From assembly GCA_965208215.1 (NCBI GenBank), contig CBDBOH010000003.1, forward strand, positions 1,338,129-1,402,128: 64,000 bases of DNA, written 5' to 3'. Shown piece after piece: positions 50,904 through 58,583 of this stretch. Both the position numbers and the translations under genes were made by a program. Source of the DNA: Chloroflexota bacterium (GTDB taxonomy: Bacteria; Chloroflexota; UBA11872). The notes under the pieces are model-generated. The model was not told where the DNA came from and ran no database searches. It saw only the letters and a list, made by a program, of their open reading frames with translations. Position 1 is the first letter of the stretch, and each line of letters begins with the position of its first letter.

Positions 50904-51074
50904 ATGGCACCATCCAACCCCACCCATCCCTCACCGACCCAACCCATGACCCCCGACTACGACTGGCAGTCCCTCCACAGCGACGCCCTCGTCATCGACT
51001 CCCACAACGACACCATCGCCGGCCTCATCCGCCCTGATGGCCAGAGCACCGCCGACCTCAGTTCTCGTCCTTAG
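50904..51074 (+). pseudogene. Truncated duplicate of the first ~47 codons of the M19 dipeptidase gene (52275..)
   Basis: MAPSNPTHPSPTQPMTPDYDWQSLHSDALVIDSHNDTIAGLIRPDGQS is ~90% identical to the N-terminus of the 52275 gene. It runs into a stop after 56 codons. Its TAG overlaps the TAA of the convergent NTase gene. Confidence 0.75.
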
Positions 51075-51739
51075 CTGTATCTGTGCGCCAGCGCGTCCGC
51101 CAGGCGCTCAGCCAGCGGCGCCTCGCCAATCTGCCGCAACTGATCGGCCAGTTCCGGGCGCGATCGCGGCAGGACGCCCGCGTCGCTCAAGGTTGCCCGG
51201 GCCAGATGGGTCAGCATTGAGACGTAATTCTCCGTAGCGGCGTCGTGATCGCCGAGCAACTGCATTTCTTGGTGGAGCTGCTGCGCACGCTTCGCACGCT
51301 TGCGGGCTTCGGCAGCCGACGGCAACGACAGCCGGCCACTCCAGTCGGCCCGCAGGCGCGACCACCACTGTTCGCGCTCGAATAGCGGCTGGCCTAAGCG
51401 AACGGCCCACGAGAGGAAGTCGTGTCCCTTCGCCAGTTTCCGTGGCACCTCATCCGCTTCGTGCTGTTGAAGGTCCACACCAATCGGCGGCCGTGAGAGA
51501 CTCGGCCGACGCGTGCGGTACACCAGCACGAGGTCAAGGTCATCGCTCTGCGAAACGTCGCGAACCGCCGATCCGGAGGCGACGATCGCCAGAATCGCCG
51601 CGTCCTGCCCGGCCAGAGCCACGGCATCCATCGTCCAAAGGCGCGCTTTGCTATTCGGCCACGATCGCACGGCCCCGAGCGTTTGGTTCGACTCGTCGAG
51701 CTGGTGCGCGGATCGCTCCGTCGAAAGCTGCCGTGTCAT
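51071..51739 (-). CDS. Nucleotidyltransferase (minimal pol-beta-type NTase, MntA-like)
   Basis: GS-x9-DxD motif (ASGSAVRDVSQSDDLDLVLVY). 222 aa. Confidence 0.8.
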   Translation of the reverse strand: MTRQLSTERSAHQLDESNQTLGAVRSWPNSKARLWTMDAVALAGQDAAILAIVASGSAVRDVSQSDDLDLVLVYRTRRPSLSRPPIGVDLQQHEADEVPRKLAKGHDFLSWAVRLGQPLFEREQWWSRLRADWSGRLSLPSAAEARKRAKRAQQLHQEMQLLGDHDAATENYVSMLTHLARATLSDAGVLPRSRPELADQLRQIGEAPLAERLADALAHRYS

Positions 51740-52122
51740 CGGGCAAGCAACCCTTGCACGAGGTCGACATACGTCTCAATCGTGCTCGCAGTGTCCTCAG
51801 GGTCCATTCCGACTGGGGCAGGTGTGTCTCCATAGGCCTGGTGTTTGCGCATGGTGTTCAGGTCGATGAGCACGTCGCCGATGTCAGGCAGGCCGTGCTC
51901 CTGGCTCAAAGACTCGGCAGCCTCCGCCTTCGCGAAGTGACTTCCGGGACGGGGCTGCCCTAGATGTAGAGCCGCGGCAACAATGCAGGCCTCAAGGCAA
52001 TACAGACCGTATGACGAAAGATCGGCCCAGTCCGGCGGATCCCACGATGCCTTTTGCACCCGTTCAAGGTGCGCCCGAGCGAGTCGGAGCGAATCCTCAG
52101 CGGATTGCTGCACCATGCTCAC
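51736..52122 (-). CDS. Putative HEPN-like helical protein partnered with the NTase
   Basis: 128-aa all-alpha protein overlapping the NTase start by 4 nt. No canonical R-x(4-6)-H motif seen. The call rests on context and helical profile. Confidence 0.45.
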   Translation of the reverse strand: MSMVQQSAEDSLRLARAHLERVQKASWDPPDWADLSSYGLYCLEACIVAAALHLGQPRPGSHFAKAEAAESLSQEHGLPDIGDVLIDLNTMRKHQAYGDTPAPVGMDPEDTASTIETYVDLVQGLLAR

Positions 52123-52274: not shown

Positions 52275-53351
52275 ATGGCACCATCCAACCCCACCCATCC
52301 CTCAACCAATCCAACTATGACCCCCGACTACGACTGGCAGTCCCTCCACCGCGACGCCCTCGTCATCGATTCCCACAACGACACCATCGTCGGCCTCATC
52401 CGCCGCGACGGCCAGAGCATGGCTGGGCCTGATGCCCCTGCCCGCCCCGAGCCTGAGAGCCTGATCGGCTACCTGCGCGGCCCGGTCGATACCGCCGAAA
52501 TCCCCATCCAGTCCGACCTCCCCGCCATGCGGGAAGGCGGCATTGACGCCGGCTACTTCGCCATCGACAACACCCGCGCCTGGGGCAACCACCTGGCCTA
52601 CGTGCTGGATGGCTTTGGCTGGTTCCACGCCGAACTCCAGGCCCATTCCGATCAGCTCGCCCTCGCCCTGACCGCAGACGACATCCTGGCCGCCAAGGCC
52701 GCCGGCAGGGTCGCCGCCGTCCTCGCCATCGAGAACTCCGAGGCCCTCGAACGCAGCCTCCACGTCCTGCCCATGCTCTACCGGGTCGGCGTCCGCACCA
52801 TGACCATCACCCACTCCATCCGCACCTTCGCCGGCGACGGCGAGAGCCACCACCACTCCGGCGGCGGCCTCACCCAATTCGGCCGCGACCTCATCGCCGC
52901 CATGAACGACCTCGGGATGCTGGTTGATGTCTCCCACCTCAGCGTCCCCGCCTTCTGGCACGCCATGCAGGCCACTAACGCTCCCGTCATCGCCAGCCAC
53001 AGCTCCTGCCGCGCCCTCAACGAGCACGGCCGCAACCTCCACGACGACCAGCTCAAGGCCATCGCCGACGGCGGCGGCGTCATCGGCGTCACCTGCGTCC
53101 ACCACTTCGTCGACACCCACAACCCCACCCTCGAGCGCTACCTCGACCACATCGAACACGCCGTCAACATCGCCGGCATCGACCACGTCGGCTTCGGCTC
53201 CGACTTCGACGGCGGCTCCTATCTCCTCGACGACGCCCGCCAGGTCCCCCTCGTCACCCAGGGCCTCGCCGCCCGCGGCTGGTCCGAACCCAACCTCCGC
53301 AAATTCCTCGGCCTCAACCACCTCCGCGCCTTCCGCGCCGCCTGCGGCTAA
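52275..53351 (+). CDS. Membrane dipeptidase (peptidase M19 family)
   Basis: DSHNDT motif and further conserved metal-binding blocks (HSIRTFAGDGESHH, VDVSHLS, IASHSSCRAL, GFGSDFDG). ATG 52275. Alternative start ATG 52317. The track ORF begins upstream at 52011. Confidence 0.85.
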   Translation: MAPSNPTHPSTNPTMTPDYDWQSLHRDALVIDSHNDTIVGLIRRDGQSMAGPDAPARPEPESLIGYLRGPVDTAEIPIQSDLPAMREGGIDAGYFAIDNTRAWGNHLAYVLDGFGWFHAELQAHSDQLALALTADDILAAKAAGRVAAVLAIENSEALERSLHVLPMLYRVGVRTMTITHSIRTFAGDGESHHHSGGGLTQFGRDLIAAMNDLGMLVDVSHLSVPAFWHAMQATNAPVIASHSSCRALNEHGRNLHDDQLKAIADGGGVIGVTCVHHFVDTHNPTLERYLDHIEHAVNIAGIDHVGFGSDFDGGSYLLDDARQVPLVTQGLAARGWSEPNLRKFLGLNHLRAFRAACG

Positions 53352-53386
53352 CCCTTACTCCGTTCATTCCCGGTCTGCAGAACGCT

Positions 53387-53411
53387 GTAGGGGTGCCCCT
53401 TGTGGGTACCC
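53387..53411. repeat. REP-like element, GTAG head plus palindrome (variant GTAGGGGTGCCCCTTGTGGGTACCC)
   Basis: 36 nt after the dipeptidase stop. Belongs to the family listed below. Confidence 0.7.
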
Positions 53412-53445
53412 TTTTCTCCCGGCTGCCTCCGGGCTGCTGTCACCC

Positions 53446-53832
53446 TCACTCCCGAATCACCCGCACCTCAACCCCAACATCCAACTCCCCCCACGCCCGA
53501 TCCGCCGTCACCGCCGGCAACCCCCGCAGCGCCGCCAGCTGCAGACACGCCCGATCCCCAAGCGACAGCCCAAGGCAGCGCGTGGACCGTCCAATACTTC
53601 CTGAGGCGAGCGCCTGAACGTCGTCGAAGCTGACAACGTCCAGATCCATCAGGGCAAGGACGTAGTGCCTCTGCTCTTGGGGCATCCCTTGCTCGGCAAG
53701 CTTGGAGGCAACCTCGGCGATATTGACCGCCGAGACCAGCGCGTCGCCCCGGTAGCCGTCAACGATCTCGGCGCCCGCCTCACTTCGGAGAACGGCCAGA
53801 ATCGCCGAGGAGTCCAAAACTGCGCGACTCAT
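53446..53832 (-). CDS. PIN-domain toxin (VapC-like)
   Basis: MSRAVLDSSAIL (first Asp), VNIAEV, and the C-terminal TADRAW motif. 128 aa. Confidence 0.8.
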   Translation of the reverse strand: MSRAVLDSSAILAVLRSEAGAEIVDGYRGDALVSAVNIAEVASKLAEQGMPQEQRHYVLALMDLDVVSFDDVQALASGSIGRSTRCLGLSLGDRACLQLAALRGLPAVTADRAWGELDVGVEVRVIRE

Positions 53833-54413
53833 TTAGACTCCGTTTCCGCAGCCTCAGCTGCTCTAGCCTGCCTCGCCTTGATCTCAGCAACTTCGGCCTC
53901 CTCCGCCGCAGCTTCCCGCCGTCGTTCCGCAATCAGCTCGTCCACGACGCTTACGCCTTCGGGAACATAGCGGGAGAGCACCTCTTGCATGCGCTTGAGC
54001 TCCTTGGCGTCGTTGGACACTCGCAGATCCTCACCGTCCATCTGCATCACGATGTAATCGCCCTCGTCAACCTCCAACGCCTTCCGATACGCGGCCGGGA
54101 TCACTACCCGCCCCCCTGGCCCAATCGCCATCCGCACTAGCACTGGCAATGAATCCTCGGACGTAAGAGCATCGGCTGGCATCGGCTGGCTGAGTTGGGT
54201 CTCTGTGAATCCGCTTCGTACGAGCACGTTTCGCACGTGCTGGTACCGAATGCCTAGGAATCCCGCGATCTCAGAGCGGCTGTACCCCGCGCGAAAGAGT
54301 GCCCGGATTTTGTCGGCCTTTGTCGTTAGGCCGTCCGCCACCTCGTCCATGGGCCGACGCTCGCATACGCAGACACAGGGATCCTGATCGCAGCTGCAGT
54401 CACAGCACTCCAT
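53829..54413 (-). CDS. AbrB/SpoVT-type antitoxin-like protein with an HTH domain and a Cys-rich N-terminus
   Basis: ATG 54413 preceded by AAGGAGA. N-terminal MECCDCSCDQDPCVCVCE. HTH-like KIRALFRAGYSRSEIAGFLGIRYQHVRNVL. Swapped-hairpin GRVVIPAAYRKALEVDEGDYIVM. 4-nt overlap with the PIN gene. Confidence 0.7.
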   Translation of the reverse strand: MECCDCSCDQDPCVCVCERRPMDEVADGLTTKADKIRALFRAGYSRSEIAGFLGIRYQHVRNVLVRSGFTETQLSQPMPADALTSEDSLPVLVRMAIGPGGRVVIPAAYRKALEVDEGDYIVMQMDGEDLRVSNDAKELKRMQEVLSRYVPEGVSVVDELIAERRREAAAEEAEVAEIKARQARAAEAAETESK

Positions 54414-54449
54414 TGTTAGTCTCCTTTCAGAGCAGTTTGGGAAGCCGTC

Positions 54450-54923
54450 CTAGCGGTTCCAGGGCGGCTTGAGGGCGGCGATCAATTCGCTCTCGACTGC
54501 CTCGCGAGCGCGCTTGCCTCCGTTTACCGGATAGAACCACAGAACGAAGTTCTCCTCTGTCGTGGTTCCCTGGTGGATCAGGCTGTTGATCCGGCAATTC
54601 GTTTCCTGTCCACCCTGGTAGCAGTTCTTCGGCGAGATTCGGCCGAAGCCATCGTTCCAGCGGCTCTGGAGGTTCTGGCACTCACCGACGTAAAGCGCCC
54701 GTCCGTCGCCATTCGTGAGAACGTAGACGCCACTCCCCCACCAGCCCTTCGGTATTCGAATGCGACCAAATGGTCCTCGTCCGTACTTGTGCAGCGGCAA
54801 ATCTCGCTCGTTGCGATACCTGGACTGCGGCATCTCGTCGATGGCCGCACCGCGCCTATCGCGCTCCGGTCGAATCCGCCCGACATGCAAGAACATGTAC
54901 CCGGCAATGCTGTGTTCATTCAT
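54450..54923 (-). CDS. GIY-YIG nuclease family protein (standalone, 157 aa)
   Basis: GVYVLTNGDGRALYVGECQNLQSRW has the GIY/YVG plus Arg core. A downstream glutamate (REAVESE) and Asn follow. Confidence 0.75.
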   Translation of the reverse strand: MNEHSIAGYMFLHVGRIRPERDRRGAAIDEMPQSRYRNERDLPLHKYGRGPFGRIRIPKGWWGSGVYVLTNGDGRALYVGECQNLQSRWNDGFGRISPKNCYQGGQETNCRINSLIHQGTTTEENFVLWFYPVNGGKRAREAVESELIAALKPPWNR

Positions 54924-55139
54924 CTCTACGGAGTCCTTTCGTAGGAGCTAGCACAACTAGACGGGCAGTTGCCACTAGATGATCCAGCCCATGACAGGCT
55001 GAATATCCAAGGATAGACAGAACTAAGGCTACTTGCCAACAGTATGGGTTATCTGACGCTGGTGGGTACGATTGGCTGCCTGATTCGCGCAACTCCCAAC
55101 TACACTGCCCTACCACCCCCCCCGCCGAGGCCCTCACCC

Positions 55140-56030
55140 ATGCAACGCCGCAAACTCGGCCGCGTCCACCACCACAGCTCCATCGTCACCCTCGGCGCCG
55201 CCGGCCTTGGCCGCGCCGACCTCCCCCAGGCCGTCGTCGACACCGCCGTCGAACAAGCCCTCGCCGCCAGCGTCAACCACCTCGATATCGCCCCCACCTA
55301 CGGCAACGCCATGGAACACATGGCCCCCTGGATGCCCCGCCTCCGCGACGAAGGCTGGTTCATCGGCGCCAAGACCCGCGGCCGCACCCGCCGGGAAGCC
55401 TGGGACAACATCCGCTCCTGCCAGCAACGCCTCGGCGTGGAGACATTCGACCTCTTCCAACTCCACTCCGTCGTCGATTTCGACGACCTCGACCAGGTCA
55501 CCCAACCCGGCGGCGGCCTCGAAGCCCTCCTCGAGATGCGCGACCAGGGCCTCACCCGCTACATCGGCATCACCGGCCACGGCCCCCTCGCCCCCGCCGT
55601 CCAGCTCGAGGCCCTCAACCGCTTCGACTTCGACACCGTCATGTTCCCCCTCGCCGCCGCCATCTACCTCAGCCCCGACTACCGGCGCGATGCCCAGGCC
55701 CTGCTGGATGCCTGCCAGCAACGCGACGTCGGCGTCCAGACCATCAAAATGCTCGCCCGCGGCGGCTGGGGCGACGGCCCCCAGGAACTCAGCTGCTGGT
55801 ACGACCCCCATCGCGACCAGCCCCAGATCGACCAGGCCCTCTGGTGGGTCCTCTCCCAGCCCGTCCACACCGCGCCCTCGACAGGCGAAACCACCCTCCT
55901 CCCCCGCATCTTCTCCGCCGCCAAACGCTTCCGCCCCCTCGATGCCGCCCAACAATCCGCCGCCATCGCCGCCCAACACCCCCCACGCCCCGAACCCCGC
56001 CTCGCCATCCCCGCCGCGGCAGTCCTCTAG
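55140..56030 (+). CDS. Aldo/keto reductase
   Basis: ATG 55140. AKR blocks (LDIAPTYGN, YIGITGHG). The track ORF begins upstream at 55044 in a C-rich tract. Confidence 0.85.
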   Translation: MQRRKLGRVHHHSSIVTLGAAGLGRADLPQAVVDTAVEQALAASVNHLDIAPTYGNAMEHMAPWMPRLRDEGWFIGAKTRGRTRREAWDNIRSCQQRLGVETFDLFQLHSVVDFDDLDQVTQPGGGLEALLEMRDQGLTRYIGITGHGPLAPAVQLEALNRFDFDTVMFPLAAAIYLSPDYRRDAQALLDACQQRDVGVQTIKMLARGGWGDGPQELSCWYDPHRDQPQIDQALWWVLSQPVHTAPSTGETTLLPRIFSAAKRFRPLDAAQQSAAIAAQHPPRPEPRLAIPAAAVL

Positions 56031-56043
56031 GACGTTCCAGTCC

Positions 56044-56068
56044 CGTAGGGGTACCCCTTGTGGGTACC
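56044..56068. repeat. REP-like element GTAGGGGTACCCCTTGTGGGTACCC
   Basis: 13 nt after the AKR stop. Contains the perfect 10-bp palindrome GGGGTACCCC plus GGGTACCC. Confidence 0.75.
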
Positions 56069-56115
56069 CATGGGCTCGATGCAGGGTCGCTTAGGCCACG
56101 CCCATCGTCGTACGC

Positions 56116-56328
56116 CTACGCGTCGGACTTCGACTGGTCTCCCCGCGTAGCGCCACCGTCTACCGGCCGCTGTCGCTTCGTACCTTGATAGAACAACCCG
56201 CGCTTGGCGCCCGACCAATCCAGCGTCTCGGGAATGTCCGACGTATCGATCTGGTCATCCGGCAACGCCTCAAGCGCATCAAGTTCGGCCCTCTCATCGT
56301 CAGTCAGGCCAGAATCTCTCGTGGTCAT
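56116..56328 (-). CDS. DUF4415-like small protein (BrnA-associated family), orphan
   Basis: ATG 56328 preceded by GAGGAGGG. MTTRDSGLTDDERAELDALEALPDDQIDTSDIPETLDWSGAKRGLFY resembles DUF4415. No BrnT partner is nearby. Confidence 0.5.
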   Translation of the reverse strand: MTTRDSGLTDDERAELDALEALPDDQIDTSDIPETLDWSGAKRGLFYQGTKRQRPVDGGATRGDQSKSDA

Positions 56329-56366
56329 AAGCCCTCCTCGCACGCGTCGTTCCTTCCCGTACCCTC

Positions 56367-57143
56367 ATGCCACCGGAGCACAGAGGACTAGCTGTGGGCG
56401 ATTCTCAAGCAGCAGCCACGAGTGACCGCACGCCACTGCCCGCCTCCCTGTCCCAGCACTACCGCTGGCTCCTCACCCTCCCTACCCCACCGCCCCAGCG
56501 CCTCCTCGACGTCGGCGCCGGCGACGGCCGCCTCCTCCAGGTCGCCCGCGACCTCCGCATCCCCCACCTCGTCGGCCTGGAGCGCAAGCGCCGCTGGCGC
56601 CCCGCCAGCCCCGACTTCGCCCCCACCATCGGCGACGCCCAGCGCCTCCCCTTCCCCAACGACACCTTCGACTGCGTCGTCGAAAACGAATCCCTCGAGT
56701 GGATCACGCAGCCAGTCCACTTCCTCCGCGAAGCCTCCCGCGTCTGCGCCACCCACGGCTGCATCCTCACCGACGACTCCGACTGGGACACCCTCGTCTA
56801 CGCCGTCCAGGACACCGCCCGCGCCCGCCGCATCCTCCGGACCTTCGGCGACACCGGCCCCAACGGCTGGATCGGGCGCAACGCGCCTTCCCTCATGCGG
56901 CAGTCAGGTCTGCGCGACATCCAGGTCCACGTCCGCGTCATCACCGAACGCGAATTCACCCCCCACACCCTCGGCTACCACCAGGCCCAGGTCATCGACG
57001 ACTGGCTCCGCACCGTCGGCGACATCACCCCCACCCAACTCGACGACTTCCACGCCGACCTCCACCACACCGCCCAGCGCGGCGACTACCTCTTCACCCT
57101 CAACCGCTACATCTGCTTCGGTCACCCAGTCCAGCGCTCGTAG
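56367..57143 (+). CDS. Class I SAM-dependent methyltransferase
   Basis: Motif I LLDVGAGDGRLL. Post-I acidic residue and motif II (DTFDCVV). Confidence 0.8.
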   Translation: MPPEHRGLAVGDSQAAATSDRTPLPASLSQHYRWLLTLPTPPPQRLLDVGAGDGRLLQVARDLRIPHLVGLERKRRWRPASPDFAPTIGDAQRLPFPNDTFDCVVENESLEWITQPVHFLREASRVCATHGCILTDDSDWDTLVYAVQDTARARRILRTFGDTGPNGWIGRNAPSLMRQSGLRDIQVHVRVITEREFTPHTLGYHQAQVIDDWLRTVGDITPTQLDDFHADLHHTAQRGDYLFTLNRYICFGHPVQRS

Positions 57144-57147
57144 CACC

Positions 57148-57172
57148 GTAGGGGTACCCCTTGTGGGTACCC
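57148..57172. repeat. REP-like element GTAGGGGTACCCCTTGTGGGTACCC
   Basis: 4 nt after the methyltransferase stop. Confidence 0.75.
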
Positions 57173-57179
57173 ACCGCCC

Positions 57180-57398
57180 CTAGCGCCTCGGCCCCTTATC
57201 CGCCAGCGACATCGCAATCACCAACCCAATCGGCCCCAGGAAAAACCCCACAAAAAACCAGATTGGAACCCACAAGTTCCCCCACACCTCCGGCTCGTCC
57301 TTCTTCGACGCCACCCGCGACGTCGCCCACCCAAACCCAACCGCCACCACAAAAAACACAAAAAACAACGGCTCCGGAACCGACACTGAGCTACCCAC
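57180..57398 (-). CDS. Small hypothetical membrane protein
   Basis: 72 aa with two hydrophobic helices, sitting between two REP copies. Weak. Confidence 0.3.
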   Translation of the reverse strand: MGSSVSVPEPLFFVFFVVAVGFGWATSRVASKKDEPEVWGNLWVPIWFFVGFFLGPIGLVIAMSLADKGPRR

Positions 57399-57401
57399 GT
57401 C

Positions 57402-58583
57402 TTGTCCTCAACGCCGAAAGTCTACGCACCCCTTCTCCATTGGCCTGCCCATCCCGTAGGGGTACCCCTTGTGGGTACCCATTGCCCCGGCAGCACGCAC
57501 CCTCCAACCACGTATCCTTCCCCCACCACATCACCGCCAATCCCGAATCCCATCCACTTCCCCTTCGCCCAATTCACCGGCACCCCCTACGACCTCGGCC
57601 TCCAACACGGCCAGCGCTTCCGCGACCTCGTCCGCCTCCAGCTCGCGGAAACCATGCAAGGCGCCGCGGACAGCGGCCTCACCGCCGCCGCCGCGCTCCA
57701 GTGGACCCGCCAGCAGCAACCTGCGGTCGAGGCCATAGGCCCCCACTGGATCGACGAGCTCCAGGGCCTCGCCCACGGCGCCGGCATCCAATTCGACGAA
57801 GCCCTCGCCCTCCAGCTCCGCCCCGGCGCCGGCGGCCTCCCCGAAGGCTGCACCTCATTCGCCGCCGTTGGATCCGCAACCACCGACCGCCAGACCATCT
57901 GCGGCCAGAACCGCGACCTTGGCGAGCCCTACCTCCACCGCATGTTCCTCGCCGCGTTCAGGCCCACCCGTGGCCCCCACATCCTCATGCACTGCGTGCC
58001 CGGCGAAATCGGCGGCGTCGGCCTCAACAGCCGTGGCGTCTGCGTCTTCGCCAACTCCCTCTGGGGCAAATCCGGTCGAACCTGGATGGCCCCGCCCATC
58101 CTCCGCCGCGCCGCCCTCGAAAGCGCCACGGCCGAATCTGCCACCCAGCGAATCCGTGCCATGTCCGGCCCCGCCGTCGGCAACTTTCTGGTCGCCGACA
58201 CCCGCCACGCCCGCAACCTCGAAATCCTGGCCGAAGGCCTCCACGTCACCGAAGTCGACGACGGCGTCTACGCCCACGCCAACAACTGCACCGCCTCAAT
58301 CCTCCTCCCCCACCAAGCCACCCGCCGGCCCCTCCCCTACTCCGAAGGCCGACGCGCCTCCCTACAAACCGCCCTTGAGACCCACTCCGGCTCAATCGAT
58401 ACCGATGTTTGCCGCCACCTCCTCAGCGACGAATCAGGCCGCCCCGAACCCGTCTGCCGCCCCTTCCGTTCCGGCGACCCCTTCGCCACCATCGCCGCCC
58501 TCATCGCCGTCCCCCACACCCAAACCCTCCACCTCAGCCACGGCCCCCCATCCAACAACCACTTCACCGCCTACCGCCTGTAG
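57402..58583 (+). CDS. Peptidase C45 / acyl-CoA:6-APA acyltransferase-like N-terminal-nucleophile hydrolase (start unresolved)
   Basis: Autoprocessing/nucleophile motif GCTSFAAVGS, plus conserved N-terminal region PYDLGLQHGQRFRD. The only upstream in-frame starts are TTG 57402 and GTG inside the REP. The N-terminus as drawn is a P/T/S-rich tract. Confidence 0.6.
   Translation: MSSTPKVYAPLLHWPAHPVGVPLVGTHCPGSTHPPTTYPSPTTSPPIPNPIHFPFAQFTGTPYDLGLQHGQRFRDLVRLQLAETMQGAADSGLTAAAALQWTRQQQPAVEAIGPHWIDELQGLAHGAGIQFDEALALQLRPGAGGLPEGCTSFAAVGSATTDRQTICGQNRDLGEPYLHRMFLAAFRPTRGPHILMHCVPGEIGGVGLNSRGVCVFANSLWGKSGRTWMAPPILRRAALESATAESATQRIRAMSGPAVGNFLVADTRHARNLEILAEGLHVTEVDDGVYAHANNCTASILLPHQATRRPLPYSEGRRASLQTALETHSGSIDTDVCRHLLSDESGRPEPVCRPFRSGDPFATIAALIAVPHTQTLHLSHGPPSNNHFTAYRL
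57456..57480. repeat. REP-like element GTAGGGGTACCCCTTGTGGGTACCC
   Basis: Lies inside the 5' end of the track ORF for the C45 gene. Confidence 0.75.

Follow-up and report, generated by a model that had tools for sequence, protein, structure and literature searches.

A VapBC-like toxin–antitoxin pair of a Chloroflexota bacterium with a cysteine-rich antitoxin N terminus and a probably captured GIY-YIG nuclease gene in its leader

We analyzed three genes on the minus strand of a 64,000-nucleotide (nt) stretch of a Chloroflexota bacterial genome (contig CBDBOH010000003.1), hereafter called the window. They encode, in order of transcription, a GIY-YIG nuclease, an unusually long antitoxin of the AbrB/MazE kind, and a PIN-domain toxin. 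By its sequence, the core of the locus is an ordinary-type chromosomal type II VapBC-like toxin–antitoxin (TA) pair. We consider it probable that the GIY-YIG gene was captured in the leader of this pair and is not an obligate third component, and that the cysteine-tipped form of the antitoxin belongs to a single subclade. An initial sequence-only reading had proposed instead a three-component TA or defence module, which the distribution of the nuclease gene does not bear out.

The nuclease gene (54450-54923, minus strand, 157 amino acids) was assigned by open reading frame (ORF) call and Pfam, the antitoxin gene (53829-54413, minus strand, 194 amino acids) by ORF call, Pfam, NCBIfam, and fold, and the toxin gene (53446-53832, minus strand, 128 amino acids) by ORF call and Pfam. 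Read directly from the sequence, the nuclease stop codon is separated by 36 nt from the antitoxin ATG at 54413, which is preceded at a distance of 7 nt by a Shine–Dalgarno (SD) sequence, AAGGAGA, and the antitoxin stop and toxin start share the 4 nt ATGA. The sequence-only reading had described the three ORFs, their sizes, the spacing, the SD, and the domain assignments correctly. It had also noted that the block is AT-richer than its surroundings, and the GC content is indeed 59-61% in the three genes vs 66-70% in the flanks. The genes on either side of the block encode an aldo/keto reductase (AKR, PF00248) and an M19 dipeptidase (PF01244).

The toxin matches the PIN family PF01850 with E=3e-13. 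Its acidic tetrad is retained almost without exception, with D7, E40, and D93 kept in 77/77 partner PIN proteins and D111 in 76/77, and by this token the protein would be a metal-dependent RNase with four acidic active-site residues. Gene neighbours were counted over the 80 best antitoxin-homologue loci, and a PIN gene lies directly 3' of the antitoxin homologue in 79 of them. The antitoxin family itself is large, comprising more than 1092 protein clusters and 354 loci confirmed in species representatives (a scan of one genome per species), and extends over Chloroflexota, Alphaproteobacteria, Arenicellales, Acidimicrobiales, and other taxa. The locus therefore has the features by which a VapBC system is recognized, namely a PIN protein with the acidic tetrad, an adjacent upstream gene for an AbrB-type antitoxin, and conservation of the pair across genomes. 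This pairing, together with the Pfam, NCBIfam, and fold assignments, upholds the earlier identification of a PIN/AbrB-type TA pair. All three proteins of the locus have numerous homologues in which catalytic or structural residues do not vary, so these features are not a product of chance.

Compared with VapBC systems that have an AbrB-type VapB, such as VapBC2 of Rickettsia felis (PMC3326315) and VapBC1 of Caulobacter (PMC5389673), the window pair shares the acidic-tetrad PIN gene placed directly 3' and translationally coupled, a predicted DNA-binding antitoxin with a swapped hairpin and a putative C-terminal toxin-binding tail, and an inverted repeat at the promoter. However, the window antitoxin is about twice the usual length and carries an extra N-terminal four-helix helix-turn-helix (HTH) module, duplicated in some relatives, as well as the cysteine cluster of its subclade. 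A sequence search of the PDB with the PIN protein returned nothing at E<=0.01, and no solved VapB or VapC was detectable by sequence from the window proteins. Against PHROGs, neither the PIN nor the GIY-YIG protein gave a match, and the antitoxin gave only a weak match to a terminase HTH. At four loci (L004 3462-4892, L006 4191-4843, L179 4666-5204, and L181 4176-5209), a second, divergent antitoxin–PIN pair stands in tandem.

A homologue of the nuclease gene lies upstream of the antitoxin in 2 of the 80 loci (L001 and L017) and is missing from the other 78. Strict synteny, with the pair between the AKR and M19 dipeptidase genes and flanks of 86-96% DNA identity, holds for 10 Chloroflexota loci (L001-L008, L020, and L034); a single one of these, L001, has the nuclease gene, and nine do not. 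Approached from the nuclease side, the result is similar, with 0/62 metagenome or viral loci carrying the antitoxin–PIN pair, the 62 being the subset of 93 such loci with 700 nt or more of sequence 3' of the nuclease gene. The search for conserved co-occurrence suggested by the sequence-only reading thus ended against its three-component module, and absence of the nuclease gene from syntenic loci is an outcome that the reading itself had named as refuting it. Nevertheless, all three genes occur together on at least eight contigs of one Chloroflexota group (L001, L017, L174/L175, L176, L179, L180, and L181/L182), and several of these share the syntenic site of the window. A neighbour-joining tree joins the TA-linked nuclease copies in one clade, to which the solo copies are sister; this points to a single capture event. 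On these distributions, the triad is a lineage-specific operon variant, neither a one-off accident nor a general three-part system.

The point of insertion can be read from the leaders of the related loci. The single sigma-70-like match within 53300-55200 found by the promoter scan, TTGGCA-18-TATCCT (55010-55039, minus strand), agrees with the consensus at 9/12 positions and lies 5' of the nuclease gene. In relatives, the TTGGCAA...TTAGATAC block to which it belongs is found upstream of the antitoxin in L002, L003, L005, and L006 and upstream of the nuclease in L001, L174, L017, and L176. Targeted alignments define this block as TTGGCA-N18-TAnnnT followed by an inverted repeat; it stands 5' of the nuclease gene in all five triads aligned (the window, L001, L174, L017, and L176) and directly adjoins the antitoxin in loci that lack the nuclease. 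The inverted repeat of the window, CAGCC-N7-GGCTG (54985-55001, minus strand), is a candidate operator at or near the predicted transcription start, and the same position is occupied by AACCCA-N6-TGGGTT in L003 and L002 and by CCCA-N4-TGGG in L001; this conserved repeat at the promoter is indirect support for autoregulation. Because the promoter block is 5' of the nuclease in triads and 5' of the antitoxin otherwise, the nuclease gene sits between the operator and the antitoxin SD. The inserted segment is about 545 nt long (~54428-54975) and contains the nuclease ORF with its own SD. We also considered that the promoter had been replaced in the triad loci; this was rejected, as the targeted alignments show the block retained upstream of the nuclease gene. 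Since the sole promoter-like site lies upstream of the nuclease gene, a single transcript is likely: the three genes appear to be co-transcribed, with the nuclease gene probably the first of a putatively autoregulated transcript in the window. The proposed history is thus that the nuclease gene would have been inserted once in the 5' leader, between the operator and the antitoxin SD, would since have been carried along with some cassette alleles, and would be expressed under the presumably autoregulated promoter of the pair.

The product of the nuclease gene matches the GIY-YIG family PF01541 above the cut-off (E=3e-5), and residues Y67, Y78, G80, R88, E144, and N156 are invariant among 24 family members. 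The AlphaFold2 (AF2) model, with a predicted local distance difference test (pLDDT) score of 88.6, was matched by Foldseek to the UvrC GIY-YIG domain, T4 EndoII, and R.Eco29kI (1yd6, TMt 0.65; also 2wsh and 3mx4), and a profile of the family matches T4 EndoII (2wsh) with E=0.002 over positions 40-128. The ratio of nonsynonymous to synonymous substitution rates (dN/dS) is 0.23-0.28, which indicates purifying selection. The invariant catalytic residues, this ratio, and the GIY-YIG/EndoII-like fold together argue that the gene is functional and not decaying, and the protein is predicted to be an active nuclease. Like T4 EndoII (DenA, 2wsh) and the minimal GIY-YIG nucleases (the UvrC N-domain, R.Eco29kI, and Hpy188I), it is a stand-alone protein in the range of ~140-160 amino acids with an N-terminal beta extension. 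It also has the catalytic Tyr, Tyr, Arg, Glu, and Asn of T4 EndoII, which it matches with a Foldseek TM score of 0.52 over the whole model. However, sequence identity to EndoII is only 13-14%, and the window gene is bacterial and chromosomal.

The family to which the nuclease belongs comprises some 150 clusters of stand-alone proteins, about 150 amino acids in length, which have conserved motifs of their own, PLHKYGxGPF and GGQETNCRIN. Relatives at 49-66% identity lie among fatty-acid genes, amidase/luciferase genes, gatCAB, or unrelated small genes. When the neighbours of the 93 metagenome and viral loci were clustered, no recurrent neighbour emerged, and the co-oriented ORFs downstream were heterogeneous. 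At one locus (L177 3001-4646), a GNAT acetyltransferase gene and a DUF433/DUF5615 pair come after a solo relative that is 59% identical, and at another (L083), a solo relative has MNT-like and DUF2281 genes beside it; proximity to small TA-like genes may be a tendency of the nuclease family.

Sequence divergence across the locus is uneven. The cassette genes have synonymous divergences (dS) of 0.5-1.4 vs 0.2-0.26 in the flanks, which is 2-6 times as high, and dN/dS values of 0.1-0.4; a dN/dS of 3.79 for AKR against L003 is an artefact of a gapped high-scoring segment pair and was disregarded. Over L001-L008, L020, L034, and L174, dS of the flanking housekeeping genes ranges from 0.04 to 0.26. 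The contrast is sharpest at L174, where the flank is 96-100% identical and the antitoxin 96% identical to the window, whereas DNA identity drops to 50-80% only over window positions 55150-54500, which cover the promoter and the nuclease gene. The corresponding dS values are 0.04 for AKR, 0.14 for the antitoxin, 0.28 for PIN, and 0.91 for the nuclease. The nuclease and the antitoxin therefore have decoupled histories in L174, and recombination has made the locus a mosaic, old and divergent alleles of the cassette having been swapped at one fixed chromosomal site between genomes that are closely related.

A pattern of this kind might be expected if the nuclease were a selfish, free-standing homing-type endonuclease that cuts TA leaders lacking it and enters them when the break is repaired. 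Its GIY-YIG fold is characteristic of homing endonucleases of the free-standing kind, for example the Seg proteins of T4. The nuclease gene is present or absent at a fixed intergenic point between conserved sequences, allele replacement that includes it is sharply local, and its relatives occur one by one in unrelated settings, 8 IMG/VR viral contigs among them. We nevertheless judge this explanation distinctly unlikely. The TA-linked copies form one clade, which points to a single capture and not to repeated invasion, and most of the closely related genomes are uninvaded. At 157 amino acids, the protein is short, and neither Pfam nor the AF2 model reveals a DNA-binding domain in it, including one of the I-TevI/Seg kind. 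In addition to the PHROGs result, a tblastn search for the nuclease in phage genomes (50,697 genomes) found nothing. Capture in the leader is the explanation that we prefer for the nuclease gene.

In the antitoxin, Pfam places a MazE/AbrB domain (PF04014, E=4e-5, just under the cut-off) at residues 101-130 and a weak HTH_23 match at residues 39-64, and the NCBIfam result agrees with the AbrB/MazE assignment. In the AF2 model, a disordered cysteine-rich tip (residues 1-20) is followed by a four-helix HTH module (residues 22-75; 54189-54350, minus strand; pLDDT 85-92; core KIRAL..GYSRSEIA..L.IRYQHVRNVL), a disordered linker (residues 76-95), the AbrB/MazE swapped-hairpin domain (residues 96-134; 54012-54128, minus strand), a helix at residues 135-149, and a long helix at residues 156-193. 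The hairpin domain was matched by Foldseek to 1yfb (AbrB-N) with a TM score of 0.71 and also to SpoVT and MazE, and by a PDB profile search to 2glw and AbrB. The sequence-only reading had described the long antitoxin as a cysteine cluster, an HTH, a swapped hairpin, and a helical tail, and this architecture is borne out by the model, Foldseek, and Pfam. Toward the 3' end of the gene, the VPEGVSLVDELIAERRRE segment is nearly invariant and is followed by the long charged helix; YVPEGVSLVDELIAERRRE is the most conserved stretch of the antitoxin family, with near-invariant columns in two alignments (A1 and A4). By likeness to VapB C termini, the conserved segment at residues 149-167, YVPEGVSVVDELIAERRRE (53913-53969, minus strand), is probably the toxin-binding segment. 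The antitoxin is thus expected to dimerise through its swapped-hairpin domain, to bind the inverted repeat at its own promoter with that domain and the extra N-terminal HTH, and to block the toxin with its conserved C-terminal segment.

The HTH module has a wider distribution of its own. Used alone as a query, it retrieved 681 clusters at 50% identity, in which it occurs by itself, in arrays of up to six, fused to an AbrB domain (27/146 representatives), or fused to a GIY-YIG domain. The HTH–GIY-YIG fusions, about 14 representatives in all, are proteins of 190-230 amino acids with the HTH at the N terminus (P0330, P0341, P0342, P0347, P0366, and others), and their GIY-YIG part matches the hidden Markov model of the window nuclease family over the whole catalytic core with E=1e-5 to 1e-10. 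An annotated example, WP_192320150.1, is encoded on plasmid pSR1 of Aminobacter sp. SR38 (L178 3007-3612) and has no TA neighbours. Its HTH is 48% identical to antitoxin residues 22-80. However, this protein is a single polypeptide that runs from HTH through a linker to nuclease, with no AbrB domain and no PIN neighbour, whereas in the window the nuclease lacks an HTH and has its own gene upstream of the antitoxin. One of the fusions, P0366, is a tandem duplicate of the complete protein. Tandem copies of the HTH itself, four to six in number, make up P0271 (367 amino acids), P0324 (413 amino acids), and P0345 (295 amino acids); these proteins are reminiscent of the multi-HTH CRISPR repeat-binding protein Cbp1, to which NCBIfam gave a weak match.

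That the HTH of the antitoxin is natively fused elsewhere to a related GIY-YIG domain is one of several observations that would suit a true tripartite module, confined to the clade that has all three genes. In such a module, the TA-autoregulated promoter would silence an EndoII-like DNase and a PIN RNase together, and loss of the antitoxin through stress, a metal or redox signal, or phage would de-repress the operon and free the two nucleases; alternatively, the antitoxin might neutralise or target the DNase directly through its HTH. The co-orientation of the genes, the 36-nt gap, the lack of room for a promoter between nuclease and antitoxin, and the placement of the sole promoter-like site all fit, as do the occurrence of the triad on at least eight contigs with the same junction and the purifying selection on a single TA-linked clade. 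We still regard a tripartite module as unlikely. Beyond the absence of the nuclease gene from most loci, syntenic or not, its nearest solo relatives (56-66% identity) lack such partners, and the decoupled histories in L174 speak against an obligate link. At L176 (3176-4152), the nuclease gene (61% identical) is intact while the antitoxin and PIN genes after it each contain a frameshift, which points the same way; these frameshifts may reflect pseudogenes or long-read assembly errors and are not firm evidence. PADLOC gave no significant match for any of the three proteins, and no literature on a GIY-YIG, antitoxin, and PIN triad was found.

The most distinctive feature of the antitoxin is its N terminus. 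Codons 1-18, MECCDCSCDQDPCVCVCE (54360-54413, minus strand), contain seven cysteines at positions 3, 4, 6, 8, 13, 15, and 17; the sequence-only reading had counted eight. Among the 120 closest cluster representatives, 62 have 4-10 cysteines in the first 25 residues, nearly the sole cysteines of the protein, and 52 have a CxCx3-5CxC motif within the first 30 residues. The conservation goes beyond the number of cysteines, extending to the CCxCxC-x4-CxCxC spacing and the intervening acidic residues. When the N-terminal 78 residues were used as the query, only 2/150 best representatives at 50% identity carried the tip, and more distant relatives have YDYDRQP in place of CVCVCERRP. From these comparisons, the cysteine cluster is limited to one Chloroflexota subclade. 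Longer antitoxins of 242-264 amino acids (L007/L008 4995-5774; P0020, P0024, P0054, and P0059) have the cysteine motif and HTH duplicated, with further CxC pieces after the second HTH, and the antitoxin of L017 (1398-1994) has extra cysteines in the linker (PRCTECGSVSPTCWYG) besides a reduced N-terminal cluster.

An alternative would be that the extension is untranslated and that the true start is the internal ATG at 54350 (M22). One gene caller did produce a 173-residue version of a protein at least 90% identical to the antitoxin (P0241), and AF2 confidence is low for residues 1-20. However, L004-L008 and L017 have Ala at the position of M22, while an upstream ATG or GTG start with an AGGAG-type SD is kept among relatives; TGC and TGT codons are exchanged synonymously in L001-L008 and L017 with cysteine retained; and relatives that lack the cysteines also begin 5' of the M22 position. 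The synonymous changes, the conserved upstream start and SD, and the variability of M22 therefore support translation of the cysteine-rich N terminus, as the sequence-only reading had held, and selection on it, and make an internal start highly improbable.

The spacing of the central cysteines, C6-x-C8-x4-C13-x-C15, is identical to that of the C-terminal CxCxxxxCxC motif of CopY, which coordinates Zn(II) or Cu(I) and governs both dimerisation and DNA binding (PMC12648655). The likeness is one of analogy, not of membership: the window motif is N-terminal, has three extra cysteines, and is carried by an HTH–AbrB antitoxin instead of a BlaI/MecI-type winged helix, for which neither Pfam nor NCBIfam gave a match in the antitoxin, and no CopY homology was found outside the motif. 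A precedent for a metal- or redox-sensing antitoxin is MqsA, in which zinc occupancy and oxidation gate degradation (PMC8808172). The stability of MqsA is governed through a cysteine-based metal site; however, MqsA has a 4-Cys zinc ribbon and an XRE HTH, acts with the toxin MqsR, and has no sequence relationship to the window antitoxin. By analogy with these two proteins, a metal or redox switch through the cysteine cluster is plausible. In the scheme that we favour, the antitoxin of one Chloroflexota subclade would have acquired 4-10 cysteines clustered at its N terminus with CopY-like spacing. The most likely role of the cluster is to take up Zn(II) or Cu(I) or to undergo oxidation, and its state would tune dimerisation, DNA binding, or proteolytic stability, in the last case as zinc occupancy and oxidation do for MqsA.

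The tract could also act at the level of codons, in that seven early cysteine codons would make synthesis of the antitoxin hypersensitive to the supply of cysteine or charged tRNA-Cys. The variable number of cysteines (4-10), the low-complexity, repeat-like character of the tract, and its constant place at the extreme 5' end of the ORF would all suit this, and VapC4 of Mycobacterium tuberculosis has tRNA-Cys as its sole cleavage target and causes ribosomes to stall at Cys codons (PMC13096801). If the VapC of the window were likewise to cut tRNA-Cys, a positive-feedback switch would be created. We regard the codon-level explanation as improbable, since the conserved spacing and acidic residues favour a folded metal site; the two are not mutually exclusive.

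Several points weigh against the scheme of a captured nuclease gene and a cysteine-switched antitoxin. The cysteine region is modelled at a pLDDT below 55, so that the suggestion of metal binding comes from the motif and not from the model. The number of cysteines ranges between 4 and 10, and most of the family has none, which suggests that the cluster is dispensable for the basic mechanism. The assignment of the promoter is drawn from its 9/12 match to the consensus. The triad persists across substantial divergence, since at L017 the nuclease is 59% identical to that of the window, PIN 62%, and the antitoxin about 45-52%, and an intact, selected nuclease gene with a conserved nuclease–antitoxin junction also fits a partnership within the clade. 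Finally, pure hitch-hiking does not explain why the HTH module of the antitoxin is fused elsewhere to a related GIY-YIG domain; this sharing leaves a low probability that the nuclease and the HTH-bearing antitoxin are functionally related. The furthest-reaching form of such a relation would be a two-nuclease device triggered by stress or infection, in which the cysteine cluster senses Cu(I) or Zn, oxidation, or cysteine/tRNA-Cys, and its inactivation frees PIN and de-represses the promoter, the DNase being expressed only then. We give this idea a small chance; if it were true, the HTH shared by the antitoxin and the GIY-YIG fusions would reflect a common DNA target.

Other features surround the cassette. 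A 25-mer resembling repetitive extragenic palindromic (REP) elements, GGGTACCCACAAGGGGYACCCCTAC, occurs on the minus strand at 53387-53411, 56045-56069, 57148-57172, and 57456-57480, that is, in four intergenic copies confined to 4 kb of the 64-kb window, with 0 expected. The sequence-only reading had placed the three genes between such elements. On one side this is so, with a copy 35 nt beyond the PIN stop, but on the other the next copy lies past the AKR gene, and the block is therefore not tightly bracketed. The 25-mer recurs in related Chloroflexota loci (short blastn matches). The element downstream of PIN has no predicted folding stability beyond that of shuffled sequence (z=0). The region 53300-55200 yielded no intrinsic terminator, and a comparison of 52500-57800 with Rfam (E<=0.1) gave no match. 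The nuclease stop codon is spanned by an inverted repeat of 10 nt (90% complementary, 9-nt loop; 54442-54470, minus strand), which lies just 5' of the antitoxin SD; no T-run follows it, and it is partly kept in L001.

Two further sets of small ORFs were seen nearby. At 51071-52122 (minus strand), ORFs of 222 and 128 amino acids overlap by 4 nt and form a second indel next to the TA locus, one that L007 and L008 have and most syntenic relatives (for example L002 and L003) lack; an MNT/HEPN-like pair was suspected, but Pfam gave no match for these ORFs. At 56116-56343 (minus strand), a 75-residue ORF (DDERAELDALEALPDDQIDTSDIPE...) occupies the place in which L179 and L181 have a 98-residue BrnA_antitoxin gene. 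A BrnA-like identity was suspected for the window ORF, which had no match in Pfam.

Taken together, these findings overturn no current understanding, and the tripartite claim fails as a general rule. The family has only generic annotation, and its lineage-specific additions here are the CopY-like cysteine cluster and the captured EndoII-like GIY-YIG gene. The HTH–AbrB/PIN family is large, with more than 1000 clusters, and the reuse of its HTH in tandem arrays and GIY-YIG fusions marks a poorly described DNA-binding module. The locus also shows gene capture by a TA leader and the shuffling of old alleles between near-identical genomes, which is behaviour expected of defence or selfish loci. If followed up, a VapB with a CopY-like cysteine cluster would offer a clean, testable metal- or redox-gated VapBC switch, and such a switch would address the long-standing question of what triggers chromosomal TA systems.

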